The position numbers and the translations under genes were made by a program. A stretch of 64,000 nucleotides of DNA from a virus (Duplodnaviria; Caudoviricetes). The stretch covers positions 1-64,000 of IMG/VR virus record IMGVR_UViG_3300010163_000016; one strand, given 5' to 3'. Numbering within the stretch: the stretch's first letter is position 1; each line of letters starts with the position of its first letter. A model generated the notes under the pieces. It was given only the letters and a program-made list of their open reading frames with translations, made no database searches and had not been told where the DNA came from. Of the stretch, positions 6,683 to 21,710 are shown one piece after another.

Positions 6683-6988
6683 TTATGCCTCCTCATAATT
6701 CAAGACCTGTCTACACTCCGGACAAATCTCATAATAGGGATTCTGATAATATCCGTCGTCGCATTCTCCACCCAGGTTGGCTCCGCAGCACGGACAGCGA
6801 TTAGGACTCCATCTCTCTCGAATGGGCTTTGATGGGATACACTTTGATACCTCTCGAATTGCGAATTCCAGTTCCTTCTTGACCGGCTTCCAATAATCGC
6901 GATAACGATATAGAGACTCTGTAACAAGAATGGCTTGTAAAAACTCAATGCTCTCATGAGCTTGGGCGATTTCCTGCTCTTTTGTCAT
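6683..6988 (-). CDS. Zn-ribbon protein
   Basis: CPCCG and CPEC pairs; start at MTKEQ after RBS. Confidence 0.6.
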   Translation of the reverse strand: MTKEQEIAQAHESIEFLQAILVTESLYRYRDYWKPVKKELEFAIREVSKCIPSKPIRERWSPNRCPCCGANLGGECDDGYYQNPYYEICPECRQVLNYEEA

Positions 6989-12822: not shown

Positions 12823-13134
12823 CTATATTAAATCGGAAACGTCCACGAAGGCAGCATGGACCTCCGCCGGGAACAGGTCTGCCGCAGCGATGTGCCTATA
12901 GCCAGTGATTTCCCTGCCGTTTCCATATGCATTGACCCCACGCGACGTCAAAAACAAATATTGCCAGTAACTGCTTCCATCATAGGATCGTTCCCAATTC
13001 GTCCGCGGCACCCCATAGATGGTTTCCATCAGGGGGGCGACGATCAGCGTTTCTTCCTGAGAGTCACACACGACAAAGCTGTAGTCGCCACACCCCTGGA
13101 CGCCGATCGCTTCAATAAGCTGTTCCCTTGTCAA
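12823..13134 (-). CDS. Small protein with DLI tail (C-[DE]-[TS]-x-EE family)
   Basis: FVVCDSQEETL; ends VDVSDLI. Confidence 0.7.
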   Translation of the reverse strand: MTREQLIEAIGVQGCGDYSFVVCDSQEETLIVAPLMETIYGVPRTNWERSYDGSSYWQYLFLTSRGVNAYGNGREITGYRHIAAADLFPAEVHAAFVDVSDLI

Positions 13135-13751
13135 AGCACATCCTCCAAAAGCTCGCAGCGGATATGGAGGCTGACGCTCTGTCCCTGACGCGCTAGCCGC
13201 CGCAGGGAGTTGGCGACGTGATCCGCGTCAAAGGCGCCGCGAAACCGGAGGCTGAATTCCTCCAGGGAGAGCGGCACAGTTTCCTGGGCAGGCCGCGGAT
13301 CCTCCTGGGGCTGGGGCGCTGGTTCCTGTCCGGGATGGAAGAAATTCATCAGGAGTATTCGCTGCCCGTTCGTCATACGGCTGCCGCAGGTGAAAAGGCC
13401 GGAAAGGTCGCAGTCCGCCACAGAGCGGCGGAAGGTGCTGATGGAGACCCCAAAAGCCTCGGCAATAACGCTCATGGTGGCTCCGTATGTATGGGCCAGG
13501 AAAGCGGTATACTGCCGCCGCAGATCGGCGGGCATATCCCGGAATTCCTGGAAGGTCATCGGTTCGCTGAGTTTGTAGCTTTTTACTTCTCCGTTCATTC
13601 TCTCCAGCTCCTTCTTGGTTTTATGGTCGGACGGCAGGGACACATAGGCGGTCCTGCTGCCGCTTCTTCTGCGGCGGGCGCTGTGTCCGGCGGACTTTTT
13701 CTCCCGGATATCGCCGTAGAATACGGACTTGATCTCTCTGGCGTCCATCAT
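13131..13751 (-). CDS. Basic helix-turn-helix protein directly downstream of retron ncRNA unit 3
   Basis: GAAAGGAGG RBS, start MMDAREIK; Arg/Lys-rich N-terminus; MSVIAEAFGVSISTFRRSV HTH-like segment. Confidence 0.7.
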   Translation of the reverse strand: MMDAREIKSVFYGDIREKKSAGHSARRRRSGSRTAYVSLPSDHKTKKELERMNGEVKSYKLSEPMTFQEFRDMPADLRRQYTAFLAHTYGATMSVIAEAFGVSISTFRRSVADCDLSGLFTCGSRMTNGQRILLMNFFHPGQEPAPQPQEDPRPAQETVPLSLEEFSLRFRGAFDADHVANSLRRLARQGQSVSLHIRCELLEDVL

Positions 13752-13791
13752 GCGGGGTGTGTGCCCCTCCTTTCGTAGGTGGATTGATGTT

Positions 13792-13970
13792 GTCTGCGAT
13801 CCATGAGGCCTGTCTTCCTGCCGGGCTGGGCGCCAGCCGGGCAGTGAAGACAGAGCCGAGTGCACGGGCCTGCGCCCGCTTGGCGTTAGCAATTTTTGTC
13901 TGGCTGCGTTGTACGTCCGCGCTGCGCTGGACGTTTCTCCGTGATGCGGAAGAAGATTTTCATCGCAGAC
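13792..13970 (-). ncRNA. Retron-like msr-msd ncRNA, unit 3 (179 nt)
   Basis: 9-bp arms GUCUGCGAU/AUCGCAGAC with opposing Gs (13961, 13801); SL1 abutting SL2 ACGUCC-A-GCG-CAG-CGC-GGACGU (13913-13934); long msd hairpin about 13807-13858. Confidence 0.75.
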
Positions 13971-13975
13971 TGTGT

Positions 13976-14286
13976 TTTGGTACTGCTGGATAGATTTCTT
14001 AGGTCAGGGCGACCTGGTCTCTGAAGGGTACTGTCCTTGAGACTTTGATGGTGATTAACGCTCGGTCGGACGGTTTAAGGCAGTGCAGGGGCTGGATGTC
14101 TGGGGATCAGCTCCGATTCCGGTGAAATTGCCGTGGTTATTTCCTTTATCCGATGAGAGCCTCACGTCCGTGTCTTGTATCGCGCGCCGCGGCAGCCTGG
14201 CCGGCTGCATCCGTCCTCCGGCCGAACCTGTGCTCCCGCGTTCCGCTGGGAGCTTTGCTTGAGCAAGCAAATATACCAGTACCAAA
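13976..14286 (-). ncRNA. Retron-like msr-msd ncRNA, unit 2 (311 nt)
   Basis: 10-bp arms UUUGGUACUG/CAGUACCAAA with opposing Gs (14276, 13986); GUAUA linker, SL1 UUUGCUU/AAGCAAA, SL2 GCUCCC-A-GCG-GAA-CGC-GGGAGC (14232-14253). Confidence 0.8.
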
Positions 14287-14344
14287 TGAGAGTTTTATTT
14301 TTCCGCTGAGAAGCTTTCTGAAGAAGGCCTCTCAATTGACTGAC

Positions 14345-15496
14345 TTATGCGGCGATATCCTGCCGCAGCATTTCCTTGACATCCCCGCCGAACTGCTGCC
14401 CGTAGAGCTCCAACACAGCCTTCATCCAGGCCGGTTCCACCATGGCGGCATAGGAGATGTTTCCCTGGAGCCGGTTCAATTCACCAACAGGTGTGGGAAT
14501 ATGGTTTTGCCGGTCGGTGAGATAATTGAAGATCCAGGCGCGCAGATCCCGCTTCCGCCGGTGGCCCAGCGTGATCTCGTTGTCTTTATTCACCATAAGC
14601 CCCAGCATCCAGTTCCTGCCGGAGCGGGACCCATAGTGGGTCTTCTCCGGCTTGATGCGGAACGGCGCATGGTTCTTTTCCAGGACCCGGTCGATGAGAG
14701 CGACGATCTTCCTGTAGTCAAAATCATACCGGGAACTGATGGTGATATCGTCGGCATAGCGGGTGTAGATATAGCGGTTCTTTTCGTAGTCCCGCAGTGT
14801 GTTGCTCAGCTCGTAGTCAATGGGGATCATGACGGCGTTGGTGAGCAGAGGAGAGATCGGTGTCCCCTGCGGCAGCCCCCCATTCAGGAAACAGAGGCTG
14901 AGGGCCTTTTCCAAAGCTGCTTTCCCCCGCGGGTAGCGGACCACCTCGCTGAAAGGGAAGATCTGGCTGAACTGCGCCATGGTAAACTCCAGGGTAGTGC
15001 TGCCGAAGAAGTTGGAGAAATCTGTTTTCAAATACCATCGGGAGTCGTTAGCCTGGTGCCGCCTGGCGGCGTCCACCGTGCATCTGCCGGTCACGTAGGC
15101 GTAGGCAGCCGTGTGATGGAGTACACGGAAATCCGATTCAAAAATCGATTTCAATATCCGCAGAGCCAGATCCAGATCAGCATGCGGCTGGTCAATGGGG
15201 CGTTTCCCTTTGCCGTTTTTCTTGGGGATCTCATAGTGGCTGTAGAGAGACGCGCGCTCCGCCTGAAACAGCGGCTCAAACTGCTGATTAAACTGCTCCA
15301 GACGGCGGATCAAAGCAGCCACGTCCAGCTGCCGGTACAGCTTATCGCTGGGCCAACTGATCAAATAGGTGCGGGTGGCGCCCTTTACATTTTTCCAAGG
15401 GGGGGCCGGGACGGCCCGGTCCAGATCTCCAAAAATCAGCTCGTCCAGAGAGAACTGATGGGATGCAGGCATCTGCTTGACCGTTACATATGGCAT
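14345..15496 (-). CDS. Retron-type reverse transcriptase
   Basis: IPKKNGKGKRPI, AARRH (region X-like), LKTDFSNFF, LPQGTPISPLLTN, YTRYADD, MLGL at the VTG position; no maturase, HNH or nitrilase domain. Confidence 0.9.
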   Translation of the reverse strand: MPYVTVKQMPASHQFSLDELIFGDLDRAVPAPPWKNVKGATRTYLISWPSDKLYRQLDVAALIRRLEQFNQQFEPLFQAERASLYSHYEIPKKNGKGKRPIDQPHADLDLALRILKSIFESDFRVLHHTAAYAYVTGRCTVDAARRHQANDSRWYLKTDFSNFFGSTTLEFTMAQFSQIFPFSEVVRYPRGKAALEKALSLCFLNGGLPQGTPISPLLTNAVMIPIDYELSNTLRDYEKNRYIYTRYADDITISSRYDFDYRKIVALIDRVLEKNHAPFRIKPEKTHYGSRSGRNWMLGLMVNKDNEITLGHRRKRDLRAWIFNYLTDRQNHIPTPVGELNRLQGNISYAAMVEPAWMKAVLELYGQQFGGDVKEMLRQDIAA

Positions 15497-15526
15497 AGGG
15501 TTTCTCCTTTCTTGAAAGTTTTGTTC

Positions 15527-15801
15527 TGTGATGTTCCTGATACGATGATGAGTCGTACAGCTAGGGCTCTCGTATTGGCCAACACAATCGTGATTTGGTC
15601 TGCGAATGGCATTTCATGGCTCTGGGTCTCCTTGCGGCTGGGGCGTTTGCCGATATAGTGTCGGTACGCTTGGTTATTGATCCTTCTCACGCCATCGCGA
15701 CTATACGCGACAGCGTAGTCTGGTCCATATTTTCCCGCCGCCGAATTCTTGCTCCCGCGTTCCGCTGGGAGCCGGTTTTGACAACCGTATACAACATCAC
15801 A
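15527..15801 (-). ncRNA. Retron-like msr-msd ncRNA, unit 1 (275 nt)
   Basis: 9-bp arms UGUGAUGUU/AACAUCACA with opposing Gs (15792, 15536); GUAUA linker, SL1 CGGUU/AACCG, SL2 identical to unit 2 (15751-15772); canonical position upstream of RT. Confidence 0.85.
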
Positions 15802-15827
15802 AATTAAATTTCTTGATGATACGCTGC

Positions 15828-16505
15828 TCAGAACGCATCCAGGGAGGGCAGGAATGCGTCCGTCTGAATGGTACGGCGGAAGGTCTTCCCTTCCGATTTG
15901 ACGAAGTTCATGAAATTGCTCACCGCCAGGGAGCAGATCAGATAGACTGTCGTGCAGACGGAGAGCGCCGTGTTGCAGGCGGTGTGGGGCGTTTCCGCGG
16001 CGGCCTGTTCGTCCGTGAAGTCCATAGTGCCGATGAAATTTCGAACGCTCAGGCTGTCGTGCCAGTCAGCCAGATAATGCTGGGCGTCGGTGAGGCTGAT
16101 GCGGACGTCGCTCATGACTGCAATGGATGGGTTCAGCTTATGCTGCTTAGCAATCGCTTTTCGGGTGGCGATACTATCCACGCAGAGGAATACGCACCCG
16201 GAGAGCGGCTGATCCTCATACCGTTCCGGGACAAGCCGGATCTGTTCCCCAATCCCGCTGTTGATCTCCGTCAGGATCTCCCCCAGCGCGTCCACCTTCT
16301 TTTTCCCGACATCCTTCTCCCGGAACATCTGATTGGCGATGTTGTGGGGCTCCACCATGTCGTCGTCGTACAGGACAAAATCCGTCAGGCCGGCATGGGC
16401 CAGCATGACGGCAATGGTGCTTCCAACCGCCCCGCATCCGATGATATGGATGCGGCCCCGGACCATGGACGGATGAAAGAATCCTTCCATTTTAATGAGA
16501 TCCAT
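15828..16505 (-). CDS. ThiF/E1-like adenylyltransferase (Ubl-activating enzyme)
   Basis: IHIIGCGAVGS, YDDDMVEPHNIANQ, CVDS; candidate catalytic Cys in TPHTACN; no Zn CxxC pairs. Confidence 0.9.
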   Translation of the reverse strand: MDLIKMEGFFHPSMVRGRIHIIGCGAVGSTIAVMLAHAGLTDFVLYDDDMVEPHNIANQMFREKDVGKKKVDALGEILTEINSGIGEQIRLVPERYEDQPLSGCVFLCVDSIATRKAIAKQHKLNPSIAVMSDVRISLTDAQHYLADWHDSLSVRNFIGTMDFTDEQAAAETPHTACNTALSVCTTVYLICSLAVSNFMNFVKSEGKTFRRTIQTDAFLPSLDAF

Positions 16506-16507
16506 AT

Positions 16508-17377
16508 TTAAATCCCCCTTCCCGCGCAGGACACCCAGCGTCCTGCCTCGTCATAGCAGCCATATGGTTCGTCGTCCGCATCATATCGGTCGCCATAAGG
16601 GTCCTCGTCGTAAAGATCGTTGGCCCATTTCTTTTGGGAAGCTCCTGTCGTGGGGCTGGCGGTCTTGCCCGCAGTCCCAGCTGTGGAGGCGGGCGGCGTA
16701 TAGCTGCCGGGGTAGGAAGTCCGCCCGCCGCCGGAGGTGGTCGTCTGATATGTCTGGACAACCATTTCCTGTGCGGACTTCAGGAACGGCTCCGCCTGGA
16801 AAGTTTCATCCCCGATGTAGACGTCAACGTCAGCGGTCTCATACATGACGCCGAACTTGTTGTCATAGAGCCGGATGAACAGCTTGCCCGGCTTGTTCAT
16901 GATAAAGAAGAGATAGAAATCCCCGGGCTGCAGCATGTTCGTCAGATCCCGCTGGAGATCGTCGTCGGTGGCGCTGGAAAACGTATCCATATTGACATGG
17001 CTGTGGCCGTGGAAGCGGATCTTGCGGAGCGTTTCTGTGGGGAACCGGTCCAGCCACGCGCCGTGCTTGATCTCATCCGTTGTGATATTGGCCCCGGTGA
17101 CACGCTGTGGGTAGACCATGACATCCTCCAGCAGGAACCGGTCATCCGCCTCCGGATCCCGGCAGCAAACGCCCTGCCAGCCGACTTCGCTGGTGAAGTG
17201 CTGAATGAGCAGCTGCATCTTGAGCCAGGCCATCGGGGCGACAACCACTTTTACCCGCCTGGGCGCGCCGGCGGGAAGCGGCATTCCGCTCAGGACGCGG
17301 GGATCGAACTTTCCCGCCAGGAGGCGGGCGGCCTTCAGGTAATCAATGGCCTCCTGGTGCAATGTAAAGTTTTTCAT
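16508..17377 (-). CDS. JAB/MPN metallopeptidase (Ubl processing/deconjugation)
   Basis: SEVGW Glu and HGHSHVNMDTFSSATDD JAMM motif; low-complexity C-terminal tail. Confidence 0.85.
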   Translation of the reverse strand: MKNFTLHQEAIDYLKAARLLAGKFDPRVLSGMPLPAGAPRRVKVVVAPMAWLKMQLLIQHFTSEVGWQGVCCRDPEADDRFLLEDVMVYPQRVTGANITTDEIKHGAWLDRFPTETLRKIRFHGHSHVNMDTFSSATDDDLQRDLTNMLQPGDFYLFFIMNKPGKLFIRLYDNKFGVMYETADVDVYIGDETFQAEPFLKSAQEMVVQTYQTTTSGGGRTSYPGSYTPPASTAGTAGKTASPTTGASQKKWANDLYDEDPYGDRYDADDEPYGCYDEAGRWVSCAGRGI

Positions 17378-17400
17378 ACGCTTTCTCCTTCTCCTTCTGC

Positions 17401-18831
17401 TCACAGCGTTTCCAAATACTCCCGGCAGGTCATTGCGGACCCATCGCGCAGCAACAGACACTTCTGCTGACTGGAGCATAACCAATTCGAGAACTTGCTG
17501 ATGGCGCTGTCGTGGATGGTGATCTGGCTGGTGGCCGCAACCGTTACTGCCACGGCGCCGGCGTAGTCTCCGGCAATCAGGGCTTCGTTCAGGTTGTCAG
17601 CGTGGGAACCCCAGCAGCCGTACCCCATCAGATGGGGATTCATGAGATAGTCCTTCAGCTCCGGAATCAGAGGTCTGTCCTCATGGATGGTGATCCCGAT
17701 CTGCTCATCCGTATAGCGGAGGTCGAACGCCGCCGCCATCCGAATTCGCACCGTCCGCTCCAAAAAGATTTCCTTCAAAAGCTGCTGGAACTTTCTTTTG
17801 GGAATATCATGGTTTTCGCAGCCATCATAGAGATAGCCGCTCAGCGTTTTGATATAGCTTTCAGCCTCCTGATCGTCCCAATAGGTCATCTCGCTCTTGA
17901 CCCAATAGGAAAATCCGCTTTGGGTCTGTCCATCGAACACCAGAGCCTTATTCGTCAGAAAGTATGTCAACAGCTCCTGATCCGCGCTTTCGTCCTGTCC
18001 GGCGGCATAGCGCAGCCCGTACAGCTCGATCATCTTCCTGTCGCGTTGGGCGGTCGTTGCCCGAATTCTGTCCTGGTACGTCCGCAGATCTCTTGTCAGA
18101 TTCTCGACGGTCTTTTCAACCGTCTTGAGCCGCTGTTCCCTCGCCCTGCCCGTGAACTTAGCCAGCTCCCGGCGGATCGTGGCGCCGCGGAAATCGTGGC
18201 CGGCCTCAAACCGGCTCATGATTTCCCGGTAAGTGTCCAGAGACACGGCTTTGGCCGAAGACAGGCAGCGTATCATTGCCTCCTCATCCTCCGTGAAGGG
18301 ATGCTCCAAGAAGAAGTTTTTGAAATAGCTGCGCATGAAGACCTGAATGATATGCCATTTCCTGGCGTTCATGCTGTCCGTGAAGATGACAGTATTGGCA
18401 ATATCATCCTGGATAAAAGTCAGGATATACGAAGGAGTTTTCCCATCATGGAACCGGCTGTAGATCCGCTCATGGAACTCATGCCCCGGGACGCCGGTTT
18501 TGCGGATGGCGTCCGCCACGTGAGCCATAGTTTCATGATCGGCAGAAATGCTCACTACAGTGACGGTGTTCCGGGCGGAGACGTCCGCCAGATCCAGCAG
18601 GCCGGACGCCGGGTTCTTTCCTTTGCCGGAAGGAAGCTGGTCCACCTGCCGCAGGCGGAGATATGCCTCCTCCCCGGCGGGGAGACGGGAAGGCAGCAGC
18701 GCACGCATGGTCGCCAGCCAGCTCACGTCCTCGTTATAAGTATCACAGTGGATATGGGGAAAAATTTCATCGGCAACGTCTGAGGCGAGACGCACCTGAT
18801 CTTTTGTGATCGTGCCAGCGATCATGTTCAC
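17401..18831 (-). CDS. Large protein with coiled coil and C-terminal E2-like domain
   Basis: NPHLMGYGCWG resembles the prokaryotic E2 PH...C motif; coiled coil around REQRLKTVEK; sits between Ubl and JAB. Confidence 0.6.
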   Translation of the reverse strand: MNMIAGTITKDQVRLASDVADEIFPHIHCDTYNEDVSWLATMRALLPSRLPAGEEAYLRLRQVDQLPSGKGKNPASGLLDLADVSARNTVTVVSISADHETMAHVADAIRKTGVPGHEFHERIYSRFHDGKTPSYILTFIQDDIANTVIFTDSMNARKWHIIQVFMRSYFKNFFLEHPFTEDEEAMIRCLSSAKAVSLDTYREIMSRFEAGHDFRGATIRRELAKFTGRAREQRLKTVEKTVENLTRDLRTYQDRIRATTAQRDRKMIELYGLRYAAGQDESADQELLTYFLTNKALVFDGQTQSGFSYWVKSEMTYWDDQEAESYIKTLSGYLYDGCENHDIPKRKFQQLLKEIFLERTVRIRMAAAFDLRYTDEQIGITIHEDRPLIPELKDYLMNPHLMGYGCWGSHADNLNEALIAGDYAGAVAVTVAATSQITIHDSAISKFSNWLCSSQQKCLLLRDGSAMTCREYLETL

Positions 18832-18860
18832 TACTCCCTTTCAAAATGGATTTTCATTGC

Positions 18861-18903
18861 GCCGTGGAGAGAGGTTTTCTTTTTTTGAACCCCTCTCCAC
18901 GGC
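18861..18903. terminator. Intergenic hairpin between Ubl and E2-like genes
   Basis: GCCGTGGAGAG / CTCTCCACGGC 11-bp stem. Confidence 0.45.
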
Positions 18904-18909
18904 CATCGG

Positions 18910-19167
18910 TTACTTCCGGCCGCCGTTGGCAGGCTTGACGCCGCTGAGGATCAGGGTGGTATCGGCCGTGATGTCGGGGTGGGCGGAAGCGATCTCGTCA
19001 AAGCTCTTATCGGCTTCGTCGGCGGTCAGGGGGATGCCGTTGATCTGGAGATTGTAGTTGCCCAGGGTAACGCCGTTGTCGCGGATGAACGCGCGGGGCG
19101 TGACGCTGCCGTCCACACACTTGGGGTCGATGCGGTCCAGATTGTTCTTGTACATGACCTGATACAT
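18910..19167 (-). CDS. Ubiquitin-like (beta-grasp) protein ending NGG-RK
   Basis: 85 aa; LQINGIPL and terminal strand LILSGVKPANGG followed by two extra residues; adjacent to E2, JAB and E1. Confidence 0.7.
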   Translation of the reverse strand: MYQVMYKNNLDRIDPKCVDGSVTPRAFIRDNGVTLGNYNLQINGIPLTADEADKSFDEIASAHPDITADTTLILSGVKPANGGRK

Positions 19168-19209
19168 AATTTTGTTCTCCTTTTTTGATATGTAAATTCG
19201 TTAATGATG

Positions 19210-19256
19210 TGTGATGTTCCTGATGAGGCGGAGACCGGCGCGGCGCGCCGGTCTCC
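19210..19256 (-). other. Orphan copy of the ncRNA unit 1 3-prime arm preceded by a 12-bp hairpin
   Basis: TGTGATGTTCCTGAT at 19210-19224 is identical to 15527-15541; hairpin at 19230-19256. Confidence 0.6.
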
Positions 19257-19268
19257 TGGCGGGGATTG

Positions 19269-19670
19269 TTACATGACTACGTCGATGAGGCCGGAGAGGA
19301 ACTCCTGCTCCTCGGCGATCTGGGTGAGAGCGGGCTGGAACTGCTCCTCCACCTTGCGGAGGTTCAGGATGGCGGCGCCGAACTTCTCAGCCACATACTT
19401 CTTCACGTCCTCGTCGGTGCCCTTGCCGCTGATGTCCACCGTCAGCATGGCCTTCTTGGGCGCGGTGTTGGTGTCGGCGCTGAAGGTGGCGCCGAAGGTG
19501 TTCAGAGAGCCGGTCTTGCCCGCGGCAACCCGGAAATACTCCTGCTTCTTGCCGTCCACTTCCTTGGTGAGCGCCAGAGCCTCGCTCTTGCCGGCCTGCA
19601 GCTTCTTCAGGTCCTCCATCGTGACCTCAGTGGTTACTACCAGGGAATTACCGATTGTTTTGATCTTCAT
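19269..19670 (-). CDS. Lys-rich 133-aa protein, first gene of the Ubl operon
   Basis: Strong AAGGAG RBS, marked G/C-ending codon bias. Confidence 0.8.
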   Translation of the reverse strand: MKIKTIGNSLVVTTEVTMEDLKKLQAGKSEALALTKEVDGKKQEYFRVAAGKTGSLNTFGATFSADTNTAPKKAMLTVDISGKGTDEDVKKYVAEKFGAAILNLRKVEEQFQPALTQIAEEQEFLSGLIDVVM

Positions 19671-19759
19671 GACTATTTTCTCCTTTTCAAAAATGTTGGT
19701 CCCATTCAGTATGATCCGCCATCGCCGCGGGGAGGCAGGGGCCGTGATGACATATAAAC

Positions 19760-19785
19760 AGCGCCGCCCACGAAAGGGCGGCGCT
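19760..19785. terminator. 10-bp GC hairpin upstream of the Ubl operon
   Basis: AGCGCCGCCC-ACGAAA-GGGCGGCGCT. Confidence 0.5.
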
Positions 19786-20080
19786 AAATGAGGTCGTCTA
19801 AATTTGGAATATACGGCACACCATATTCCAGCCAGGTGTATGTGTGGGAATAATTGTGCTGTGCATAGTCTTCAAAGCCGTAGCCGACATATCTGGTATC
19901 GTGATACCGGTTATAGATCGGCCATTCCGGTATGCGTCTACGGTAGTGGGGCGGACCGGCGGAAATCCTGTGCGTATCACATTCTTCTTGAAATGCCAAA
20001 AACGTTTCCACCGAAGGAAAGAAAACCAGACACCTGGAAGACGCCAGGAACGTCTCCCAGTCAAATGGCTGTTTTATCAT
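19784..20080 (-). CDS. Small protein with DLI tail
   Basis: Ends PNLDDLI. Confidence 0.7.
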   Translation of the reverse strand: MIKQPFDWETFLASSRCLVFFPSVETFLAFQEECDTHRISAGPPHYRRRIPEWPIYNRYHDTRYVGYGFEDYAQHNYSHTYTWLEYGVPYIPNLDDLI

Positions 20081-20091
20081 CGATTCCCTCC

Positions 20092-20346
20092 TCAGATCAA
20101 ATCGTCCAGATCAGGCGGCACATCATTGTGAAGAGCGAGCTCTTCCAATTCATAATTCCAGCCGTAACCCTCCTCTACCCGCCCAGCGCAGTCATGTAAA
20201 CGGGGATGATATTCGTCATGCTGAACAGCATATCGACCATCCCTCAGTACACAGAACACGGTTCCAACCATCCCTATCTGGTGGGGCATTGTCCCATTCC
20301 ATTCCTTGTTTGCAACACAGATCACCCGGTCGCCGATTGAAAACAT
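20092..20346 (-). CDS. SH3/KOW-like small protein with DLI tail
   Basis: FSIGDRVICV, LHDCAG...GYGW; ends PDLDDLI. Confidence 0.7.
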   Translation of the reverse strand: MFSIGDRVICVANKEWNGTMPHQIGMVGTVFCVLRDGRYAVQHDEYHPRLHDCAGRVEEGYGWNYELEELALHNDVPPDLDDLI

Positions 20347-20366
20347 ACTTATCCCCCTTTCTCGTG

Positions 20367-20624
20367 TCAAATCAAGCCGGAAACATCCGGCGGGTCATCT
20401 TTCTCTGCAAGGCCGGCAAACATATCATCTGTCCACCAATACCCAGCTTCTTCAAGGACATACTTACCGCAGGTTGCTGATCGAATCGTTACGATCTGTC
20501 CTTTCCAACGAATCATTGGCTCTACAACCGCATCTCCGATATCACAACCATCCATATAATAGACCTTGCGCAAGACAAGGTCATCCCGCACCAGGACGCG
20601 GTCGCCGGGTGCATACTTCGCCAT
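20367..20624 (-). CDS. SH3/KOW-like small protein, variant tail
   Basis: YAPGDRVLVR; ends PDVSGLI. Confidence 0.7.
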   Translation of the reverse strand: MAKYAPGDRVLVRDDLVLRKVYYMDGCDIGDAVVEPMIRWKGQIVTIRSATCGKYVLEEAGYWWTDDMFAGLAEKDDPPDVSGLI

Positions 20625-20640
20625 AGGAGCCTTCCTTTCC

Positions 20641-20865
20641 TTAAATCAAATCATCAACGTTGGGCAGGTCGTTTCTGTTGGGAACCTGGATAATGGTCCA
20701 CACGCCGTGTTTGATATAGTCGGTGATCTCTTGTTCGGAATAGTTTTCATAGCGTTTTCCGGTTGTCATACTGACTAGATAACTGCTGCTGCCGTCTATT
20801 ACATATTCGTAACGAGGTCTGGAAGAGCCATAGTATTCAATAACGGCACGGCGCGGGATGTTCAT
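20641..20865 (-). CDS. Small protein with DLI tail
   Basis: Ends PNVDDLI. Confidence 0.65.
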   Translation of the reverse strand: MNIPRRAVIEYYGSSRPRYEYVIDGSSSYLVSMTTGKRYENYSEQEITDYIKHGVWTIIQVPNRNDLPNVDDLI

Positions 20866-21062
20866 GGCGCCAGCTCCTCATCTTCTTGGGACGCCAAGAT
20901 CCTGCGGATGGCTTTCTGCTGTTTGCTTGTCAATGTTGCGAAATCCAGCTCAAAATCGTCGCAGCCCCTCTTGGGGTATGGCAATCCGTCGTCGCAATCC
21001 CAGGAATATCTATACCGGCAATGCTCGCATACAGTCACGATAGACTCCTCCTTTCCATGTCT

Positions 21063-21347
21063 CTATATCAGGTCGCTCAGGTCGATCCATGGGATTTCTT
21101 CTACAGGGGCGACCATATCGTCATCTACATACCACCCATAGCCCCTCTCGCAGTTGCCGTTGCAGCTATGAAAATTGGACGTGTCGCATTCCACTTCCCA
21201 GCAGACGCCAAAGCGGCTGGGCCCTCCCAGCATTCCCATGCTGTCGACCACGGTGCCACAGATCCCAGTGCGGAGGACTGGATTACCCTCCGGATAATCC
21301 ACCAGCAGGCAGACGCGGTCGCCTTTTTTATACTGGAATTCGTCCAT
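21063..21347 (-). CDS. SH3/KOW-like small protein with DLI tail
   Basis: YKKGDRVCLL, FHSCNG...GYGW; ends IDLSDLI. Confidence 0.7.
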   Translation of the reverse strand: MDEFQYKKGDRVCLLVDYPEGNPVLRTGICGTVVDSMGMLGGPSRFGVCWEVECDTSNFHSCNGNCERGYGWYVDDDMVAPVEEIPWIDLSDLI

Positions 21348-21362
21348 GGTTTCCTCCTTCTG

Positions 21363-21710
21363 TTAAATCAAGTCGTCAACATCAATACCAATGTCGGACC
21401 CGATTAGGTGAGCAATTTCGTCATACAGGACTGCTGATGATGGCCGGGCAGCCGAAAATTCAATCCCGTCTGAAAACGAAGAGCACATGACAGTGGGCCA
21501 ATGACAGCTTTCTTTTATATCGGCTTCCGGGTCTGCAAGCATCTTTTCAGACCAGCCGGAACCCCCATGGGGAATTCCATGATCCAGCAAAAATTGAATG
21601 ACAGTGGCGCGGTCGCTGCCATTATCACAGTAGACGGAGATACGGCCTGCGCAGAACGCATCCAGAAATTCATCCAAGCTCACGGCAATACGCCTCCCTC
21701 TCCTCCTCAC
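21363..21710 (-). CDS. Small protein with DLI tail
   Basis: ISVYCDNGSDR; ends IDVDDLI. Confidence 0.65.
   Translation of the reverse strand: MRRRGRRIAVSLDEFLDAFCAGRISVYCDNGSDRATVIQFLLDHGIPHGGSGWSEKMLADPEADIKESCHWPTVMCSSFSDGIEFSAARPSSAVLYDEIAHLIGSDIGIDVDDLI

Follow-up and report, generated by a model that had tools for sequence, protein, structure and literature searches.

Does a retron encoded beside a ubiquitin-like conjugation pathway in a phage genome work with that pathway, or are the two only neighbours? The question is raised by a virus of the class Caudoviricetes (IMG/VR record IMGVR_UViG_3300010163_000016, 83.8 kb), of which we analysed positions 1 to 64,000 (64,000 nucleotides, hereafter the window). 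On the minus strand of the window, genes for a protein termed p133, a ubiquitin-like protein (Ubl), an E2-like protein (p476), a JAB/JAMM metalloprotease (JAB) and an E1-like adenylating enzyme (E1) are followed by a retron-type reverse transcriptase (RT) that is accompanied by three noncoding RNA (ncRNA) units. A first-pass annotation had suggested that the two sets are transcribed together and that the multicopy single-stranded DNA (msDNA) of the retron gates protein conjugation. We find that the retron and Ubl arms are gained, lost and inherited together. The reading we favour, at a probability of roughly 0.6, is that they form one accessory conflict module, a Bil-like tagging cassette (with p133) joined to a multi-template retron, in which the retron would sense or regulate and the Ubl cassette would act.

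Retron and Ubl genes form a conserved unit

Loci were gathered from both arms. In a viral set seeded with the RT (80 loci with RT relatives 43–51% identical), all 77 loci that could be judged, namely those with enough upstream DNA, had E1 upstream of the RT in the same orientation, preceded by JAB and p476. When p476 was the seed, JAB, E1 and RT were present at each of the 70 judgeable loci, at p476 identities of only 22–28%. With RT-seeded loci taken from one genome per species, E1 lay within 10 kb in 56 of 58. RT homologues were thus mostly found with, and not without, the Ubl genes in all three seeded sets.

Two further sets were chosen by neither RT nor p476. Among 24 viral records of at least 50 kb that have a common portal family, RT, E1 and p476 were present in the same 7 and all three were missing from the other 17. 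In an even sample of 399 genomes from one bacterial class, p476 was present in five, and the RT clade in the same five. The first-pass annotation had named the Ubl machinery as one candidate partner of the retron, and the all-or-none presence in both of these sets supports the association of the two. No other conserved gene that might serve as a retron effector was found in the related loci, where only p133, Ubl, p476, JAB and E1 were conserved.

The association extends to distant relatives. The sole related record in a GenBank phage collection has an RT 36% identical and keeps the order p133, p476, JAB, E1, msr and RT. Across 13 phages, pairwise RT identities tracked those of E1, JAB and p476 (Spearman 0.81–0.89) as closely as the Ubl genes tracked one another; the correlation with the portal protein was lower (0.64). 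Flanking genes were less constant, the commonest family being found in 64% of loci and downstream families in at most 30%; the commonest five are all absent from the window. Relatives close enough for fine comparison were found neither by the hairpin word among viral contigs, nor by the RT in JGI metagenomes, nor by the portal protein alone.

Conservation of this degree could also mean that the block serves the life cycle of the phage itself, with cDNA as primers or recombination substrates and with Ubl tagging of virion or replication proteins. Mean pairwise identity across the 13 phages is about the same for RT (0.55) and E1 (0.60) as for the portal (0.55), and the module is common in the lineage, with 228 RT-positive against 333 portal-positive viral contigs. 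Set against this are the 17 portal relatives that lack the whole block, one of which is 95% complete and several of which are 79–88% complete. Because near-complete relatives do without it, the block is dispensable, like accessory genes, and we consider a housekeeping role of this kind very improbable.

One reverse transcriptase with several structured RNAs

The RT (14345–15496, minus strand, 383 amino acids, start at 15496) carries a YADD motif. All of its best PADLOC matches are retron RT models (RT_II-A, 4.4e-52), and its best NCBIfam match, retron_St85_RT, reaches 187.8 bits, under the cut-off of 235; Pfam RVT_1 also matched. Because retron models match best but score below the curated cut-off, we place the protein in a distinct clade inside the retron group. 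It has a conserved N-terminal extension of about 80 amino acids that is absent from the matched model retron RTs. The nearest RT models belong to retron type II-A (St85/Sen2), and both systems have an ncRNA upstream of the RT with a1 and a2 arms. In contrast to type II-A, the locus described here has no nucleoside deoxyribosyltransferase-like effector, its RT falls below the type's cut-off and carries the extension, and there are multiple ncRNAs.

The template RNAs were defined by comparison. Within 350 nucleotides 5′ of the RT, the 80 viral loci have a common a1 arm (core CTGTAAYG), a variable hairpin and a second hairpin of 5 bp, a bulge, 3 bp and a 3-nucleotide loop. Compensatory changes were found in all seven predicted pairs of this second msr hairpin. 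The a1 and a2 arms of one locus pair over a mean of 8.55 nucleotides, compared with 5.4 for arms taken from different loci (80 distinct loci). Retrons prime synthesis from the 2'-OH of a conserved, unpaired G beside a1. In this family a nearly invariant G closes the core; in the window it is part of the a1 stem, and the G that follows is left unpaired.

A covariance model built from the msr of the family matched the window exactly three times, always on the minus strand, which is also that of the RT: at 15730–15811 (E 2e-7), 14211–14293 (E 0.0097) and 13892–13977 (E 0.023). Unit 1 (15527–15801, minus strand) lies between E1 and RT; its a1 arm, TGTGATGTT, occupies 15793–15801 and its a2 arm 15527–15535. 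Unit 2 (13976–14286) and unit 3 (13792–13970) follow the RT on the same strand. Each unit folds into a closing a1/a2 stem, two msr hairpins and an msd hairpin, with fold z-scores of -4.3, -2.4 and -6.9 for units 1, 2 and 3, respectively. Units 1 and 2 have a 40-nucleotide stretch in common that includes the msr hairpin. In unit 3, the a1 and a2 arms form a perfect 9-bp stem and the shape of the msr hairpin is kept through compensatory changes.

Arrays of this kind recur. On 133 related loci the covariance model gave 297 matches, all on the RT strand, and nhmmer gave 462 matches on that strand and one on the opposite strand. Units lay between E1 and RT (118), within 1.5 kb after RT (135) or farther downstream (39). 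Since most loci hold two to four units, the combination of one RT with several template RNAs is a trait of the family and not a quirk of a single phage. The msd sequences had no match elsewhere in the window or in the relatives, and a search of Rfam gave no family match.

The cassette encodes a predicted Bil-like conjugation pathway

Ubl (18910–19167, minus strand, 85 amino acids) ends in ...ANGG-RK. Its AlphaFold2 (AF2) model is a beta-grasp fold (predicted local distance difference test, pLDDT, 75.8), and the top 50 structural matches in the PDB are all SUMO, ubiquitin or UBL domains, at probabilities up to 0.99 and template modelling (TM) scores of 0.5–0.6. In the relatives, an open reading frame of 75–85 amino acids always stands between p133 and p476; it ends in ...KADNA, ...NGG or ...IGG followed by zero to five further residues. 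The window copy has GG-RK.

Downstream of Ubl lies p476 (17401–18831, minus strand, 476 amino acids; the true start is likely to be the ATG at 18825), which consists of an N-terminal alpha/beta domain, a long coiled coil and a C-terminal E2/RWD-like domain. In its AF2 model (pLDDT 85.6), residues 284–438 align with the Plasmodium falciparum E2 2h2y_B (Z 6.6, root-mean-square deviation 3.2, 96 amino acids), and the domain also matches RWD domains of Knl1, Listerin and FANCL. His400 and Cys406, in an NPH..Y.C.G motif, are invariant among the relatives, and a Pfam search of p476 gave no match. The label E2-like is well supported by the predicted structure but falls short of proof because the structural Z values are moderate. 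For the N-terminal domain, a nucleotidyltransferase fold was considered and rejected, as matches were weak and scattered and no catalytic motif was conserved; a second alignment favoured a weak similarity to MoaB/MogA, with a Z of about 5, and we assign the domain to no fold.

JAB (16508–17485, minus strand; likely true start at the ATG at 17377) has the invariant residues Glu100, His161, Ser162, His163, Ser171 and Asp174 of a JAMM motif, and its profile matches Rpn11 (E 0.009). The E1 (15828–16505, minus strand, 225 amino acids) is minimal, a single ThiF-type domain (Pfam ThiF, 2.4e-21). Its best profile matches in the PDB are the active adenylation domain of Uba1 (9e-18), UBA5, MccB, MoeB and Cap2; the GxGxxG motif and Cys177 are invariant among relatives. 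The first conserved gene of the module, p133 (19269–19670, minus strand), received no assignment from Pfam, PHROGs, PADLOC, a PDB profile search or Atlas. One weak AbrB/MazE-like match was found at its N terminus (E 0.0075), and homologues occupy the same position in most related loci. The parts of both arms are present, and the ncRNAs are structured, with compensatory changes.

The closest parallel in gene order is Bil, in which Ubl, E2, a deubiquitinase (DUB) and E1 follow one another and the residues beyond the reactive Gly are removed by the DUB (PMC10557695). The anti-phage BilABCD systems of types I and II have the same order as the cassette described here, Ubl-E2-DUB(JAB)-E1. Further likenesses are a single beta-grasp Ubl and the extra residues after the reactive small residue, consistent with trimming by JAB. 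There are also differences: the Bil E1 consists of tandem inactive and active adenylation domains (IAD-AAD) and a CYS domain, whereas the E1 here is one adenylation domain; the E2-like protein has an added N-terminal domain and coiled coil; and p133 and the retron are additional. Profiles of p476, JAB and Ubl retrieved no Bil chain from the PDB, which contains 8TZ0 and 8TYX, and these three proteins had no PADLOC match. BilD was absent among the best 60 of the 81 PDB matches of E1.

E1-type adenylation and a JAB protease also meet in the conflict system type II CBASS (cyclic oligonucleotide-based antiphage signalling system), as Cap2 (E1-E2) and Cap3 (JAB), and the Rossmann part of the E1 alone matches Cap2 models. 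By its gene content the block is not a CBASS system: it has no CD-NTase and no fused E1-E2, and a free Ubl is present.

CBASS does provide the parallel for a reversed order of control, in which the Ubl cassette would tag the RT or a protein bound to msDNA and so switch cDNA synthesis, with msDNA as the output (a decoy, sponge or guide). In type II CBASS, Cap2 and Cap3 prime and un-prime the CD-NTase. The association of the two arms fits this arrangement as well as it fits the one we favour. The likeness of the E1 to the Cap2 adenylation domain, the conserved N-terminal extension of the RT and counter-defence-type genes near the modules of relatives (RtcB, NAMPT and DNA ligase, see below) would fit it too. 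Set against these, CBASS conjugates the enzyme's own tail whereas a dedicated free Ubl is encoded here, nothing in the sequence marks the RT as a target, and we know of no retron that is regulated by Ubl tagging. Control in this direction therefore seems unlikely to us.

The junction between the two arms

Several features had led the first-pass annotation to suggest co-transcription, and they hold. Exactly 26 nucleotides separate the E1 stop, which ends at 15828, from the a1 arm of unit 1 at 15801, and all genes of the module are on the minus strand. A consensus scan of the interval between E1 and RT found no terminator-like site on this strand and one weak promoter-like match (9/12, 15727–15700), which lies inside unit 1. 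Tight spacing recurs, with a gap of at most 77 nucleotides between the E1 stop and the ncRNA in 48 of 113 loci.

A 15-nucleotide element had been proposed as another link. The window does contain ATCAGGAACATCACA at exactly two places, each on the minus strand, namely the a2-arm region of unit 1 (15527–15541) and the Ubl leader (19210–19224), against an expectation of 0.01 occurrences. As a general link between the arms it did not stand, since it is not conserved: the longest word common to the a2 region and the Ubl leader averaged 7.0 nucleotides across 94 relatives, compared with 6.7 in controls. One other subgroup has a 10-nucleotide copy of the a2 arm in the Ubl leader. We leave the 15-nucleotide copy as a local oddity of the window.

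The second effector candidate of the first-pass annotation was the helix-turn-helix (HTH)-like protein (13131–13751, minus strand, 206 amino acids, ATG at 13751), which has a weak HTH_23 match. In the window its gene directly follows unit 3 and has its own ribosome-binding site. None of the 80 viral loci has a homologue, and just one genome locus does; in L154, the nearest relative, other genes stand between the HTH gene and unit 3. We therefore reject the protein as the retron effector. In that relative, the stretch from the ncRNA units to the HTH gene also contains, at about 6718–6800, a tRNA-like sequence with a CCA end.

Could the arms be independent neighbours?

The association might reflect linkage only: a retron with an effector encoded in trans, or with none, and a Bil-like cassette could be independent neighbours in one accessory slot. 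A number of observations point this way and weigh against a single module. First, 19 of 19 near-complete carriers have one portal family, so that the co-occurrence counts reflect one old lineage and not independent events. The genes are also adjacent, and adjacency alone gives co-loss on truncated contigs and correlated divergence. Second, two members of the RT clade (L168, 7316–11140; L181, 9024–12374) stand beside a phage-type integrase on contigs that lack Ubl genes; for one of the two, no Ubl gene was found in the whole metagenome-assembled genome (MAG). An RT of this clade can thus exist without the cassette; the two copies lie among ordinary bacterial genes and resemble small integrated elements with only the retron on board.

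Third, the junction is less tight in other phages than in the window. A hairpin that resembles a terminator and has a T run parts E1 from the RT-proximal ncRNA in 14 of 81 distinct relatives, and it stands just before the ncRNA. In the clearest cases (L050, L051, L057, L061, L063, L067 and L072) the hairpin ends about 12 nucleotides before a1, which leaves no room for a promoter; in these relatives transcription may read through, with processing of the transcript. Genes are often inserted between the arms. About one locus in three has a DUF6273 gene (for example, L001, 8799–9665; Pfam, 6.9e-18) in the interval from E1 to the RT-proximal ncRNA, and in some loci E1 lies up to 7 kb from RT. Finally, the Rossmann part of E1 is the one portion of the Ubl cassette that any PADLOC defence model matched, and all of the evidence for coupling is genomic.

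What argues against mere linkage is the behaviour of the surrounding DNA. Accessory regions of phages are mosaic and the flanks vary here too, yet the six genes remain together down to identities of 36% for RT and 22% for p476. Presence is all-or-none in two sets that were selected by neither gene, none of the 70 judged p476 loci lacks RT, and the retron has no other conserved partner. On balance we regard independent neighbours as an improbable account.

A separate observation concerns three loci with the DUF6273 insertion (L047, L177 and L185), in which a further msr unit still lies directly after the E1 stop.

Genomic setting of the module

The phage is tailed and temperate, with genes for an integrase, a large terminase, a portal and a tape measure protein. 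The carrier lineage comprises temperate phages of about 105–140 kb that infect gut Clostridia, the natural hosts being uncultured. In the species-genome records, most of the named hosts are Clostridia MAGs, recovered from the guts of humans, chickens, rabbits, ruminants and termites. Retron Ec73 on phiR73 is likewise a retron on a temperate phage. Retron-carrying prophages such as phiR73 have a single ncRNA and classical effectors and are not known to carry Ubl genes.

The module sits in a leftward block in which every gene is on the minus strand. On that strand the order is a terminator-like hairpin, p133, Ubl, p476, JAB, E1, ncRNA unit 1, RT, units 2 and 3, and the HTH-like gene. The upstream boundary of the module is marked by the first of these, an intrinsic-terminator-like hairpin upstream of p133 (19759–19786, minus strand; 11 pairs, nine of them G-C, with a T-rich tail). 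Two more hairpins, both on the minus strand and without a T run, lie within the cassette: a perfect 12-bp G+C hairpin 3′ of the p133 stop (19229–19263) and a 16-bp hairpin between the Ubl stop and the p476 start (18861–18903). They may raise the amounts of p133 and Ubl relative to the enzymes. Many small proteins encoded on the minus strand at 19784–21683 and 12823–13134 of the window end in a common short tail (..DDLI, ..SGLI or ..SDLI).

In relatives, the DNA downstream of the module (for example, L002, 14701–18672; L014, 19012–20538) often encodes an RtcB RNA ligase, an ATP-dependent DNA ligase, an SPFH protein and a NAMPT-type phosphoribosyltransferase, genes that would suit a part in repair or counter-defence. 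In four related records (G010, G015, G018 and G023), the match to the portal gene is split into two pieces 0.4–1.1 kb apart, as if the gene held an intron, an intein or an inserted gene.

A possible division of labour

A functional coupling of the retron and Ubl arms is, judging from these genomic patterns, likely. That they form a single accessory conflict system is suggested by the fact that the block is dispensable yet strongly conserved where present, is carried by a temperate phage, has two arms of conflict type and offers the retron no other partner. Beyond the association itself, any statement on which arm controls the other, on what is tagged and on how the phage gains is inference.

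The roles assigned to the two arms follow a precedent. In retron Eco7, sensing by the retron is reported to be coupled with PtuAB, the effector of Septu (PMC12640716). Retron type I-A (Eco7/Ec78, comprising RT, ncRNA and PtuAB) is likewise a retron joined at the operon level to effectors of a stand-alone system, with the retron thought to be the sensor and the captured module the actor. Because type I-A captured the Septu PtuAB pair, we suggest that here too the retron would sense and the Ubl cassette would act. The differences are that the partner is a five-gene Ubl set and not an ATPase-nuclease pair, that there are several ncRNAs per RT, that the carrier is a phage and that the RT belongs to a different clade, its best model being type II-A.

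In a single module of this kind, RT would copy each msd into msDNA, and the RT-msDNA complexes would form the sensing or regulating arm, with the Ubl cassette as the effector arm. A trigger that damages or binds msDNA would release or redirect Ubl conjugation onto a target. JAB would trim the Ubl tail, which in the window is the RK after GG, and could reverse conjugates, and several msDNAs would widen the set of triggers. Such a module would probably operate in lysogeny or infection, when the phage contends with rival phages or with the defences of its host. The narrower proposal of the first-pass annotation, that msDNA gates conjugation, is on the same sequence-level evidence doubtful. Its fullest form, in which every msDNA would serve as a sensor or guide of its own to switch or direct Ubl conjugation and the whole would amount to a virus-borne, nucleic-acid-programmed protein modification, is similarly tentative.

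Retrons are classified by the effector that they carry, and one whose only conserved partners are a Ubl conjugation set would be a new type. The terms ThiF, JAB and ubiquitin do not occur in the 13-type retron classification (PMC7736814) or in a review of prokaryotic RTs (PMC8632793), the Bil paper (PMC10557695) does not mention retrons or RTs, and a full-text literature search found no description of a retron-Ubl pairing. Such a retron would in addition represent a novel means of controlling bacterial-type ubiquitination. The system stands out in that one RT serves several template RNAs, its carrier is a widespread lineage of gut phages and it includes protein families that are not in Pfam. 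A compact RT with several natural templates could interest users of retrons for DNA production in cells. Should the two arms act jointly, two questions would become testable: by what route the signal of a retron gets to its effector, and which targets prokaryotic Ubl systems select.

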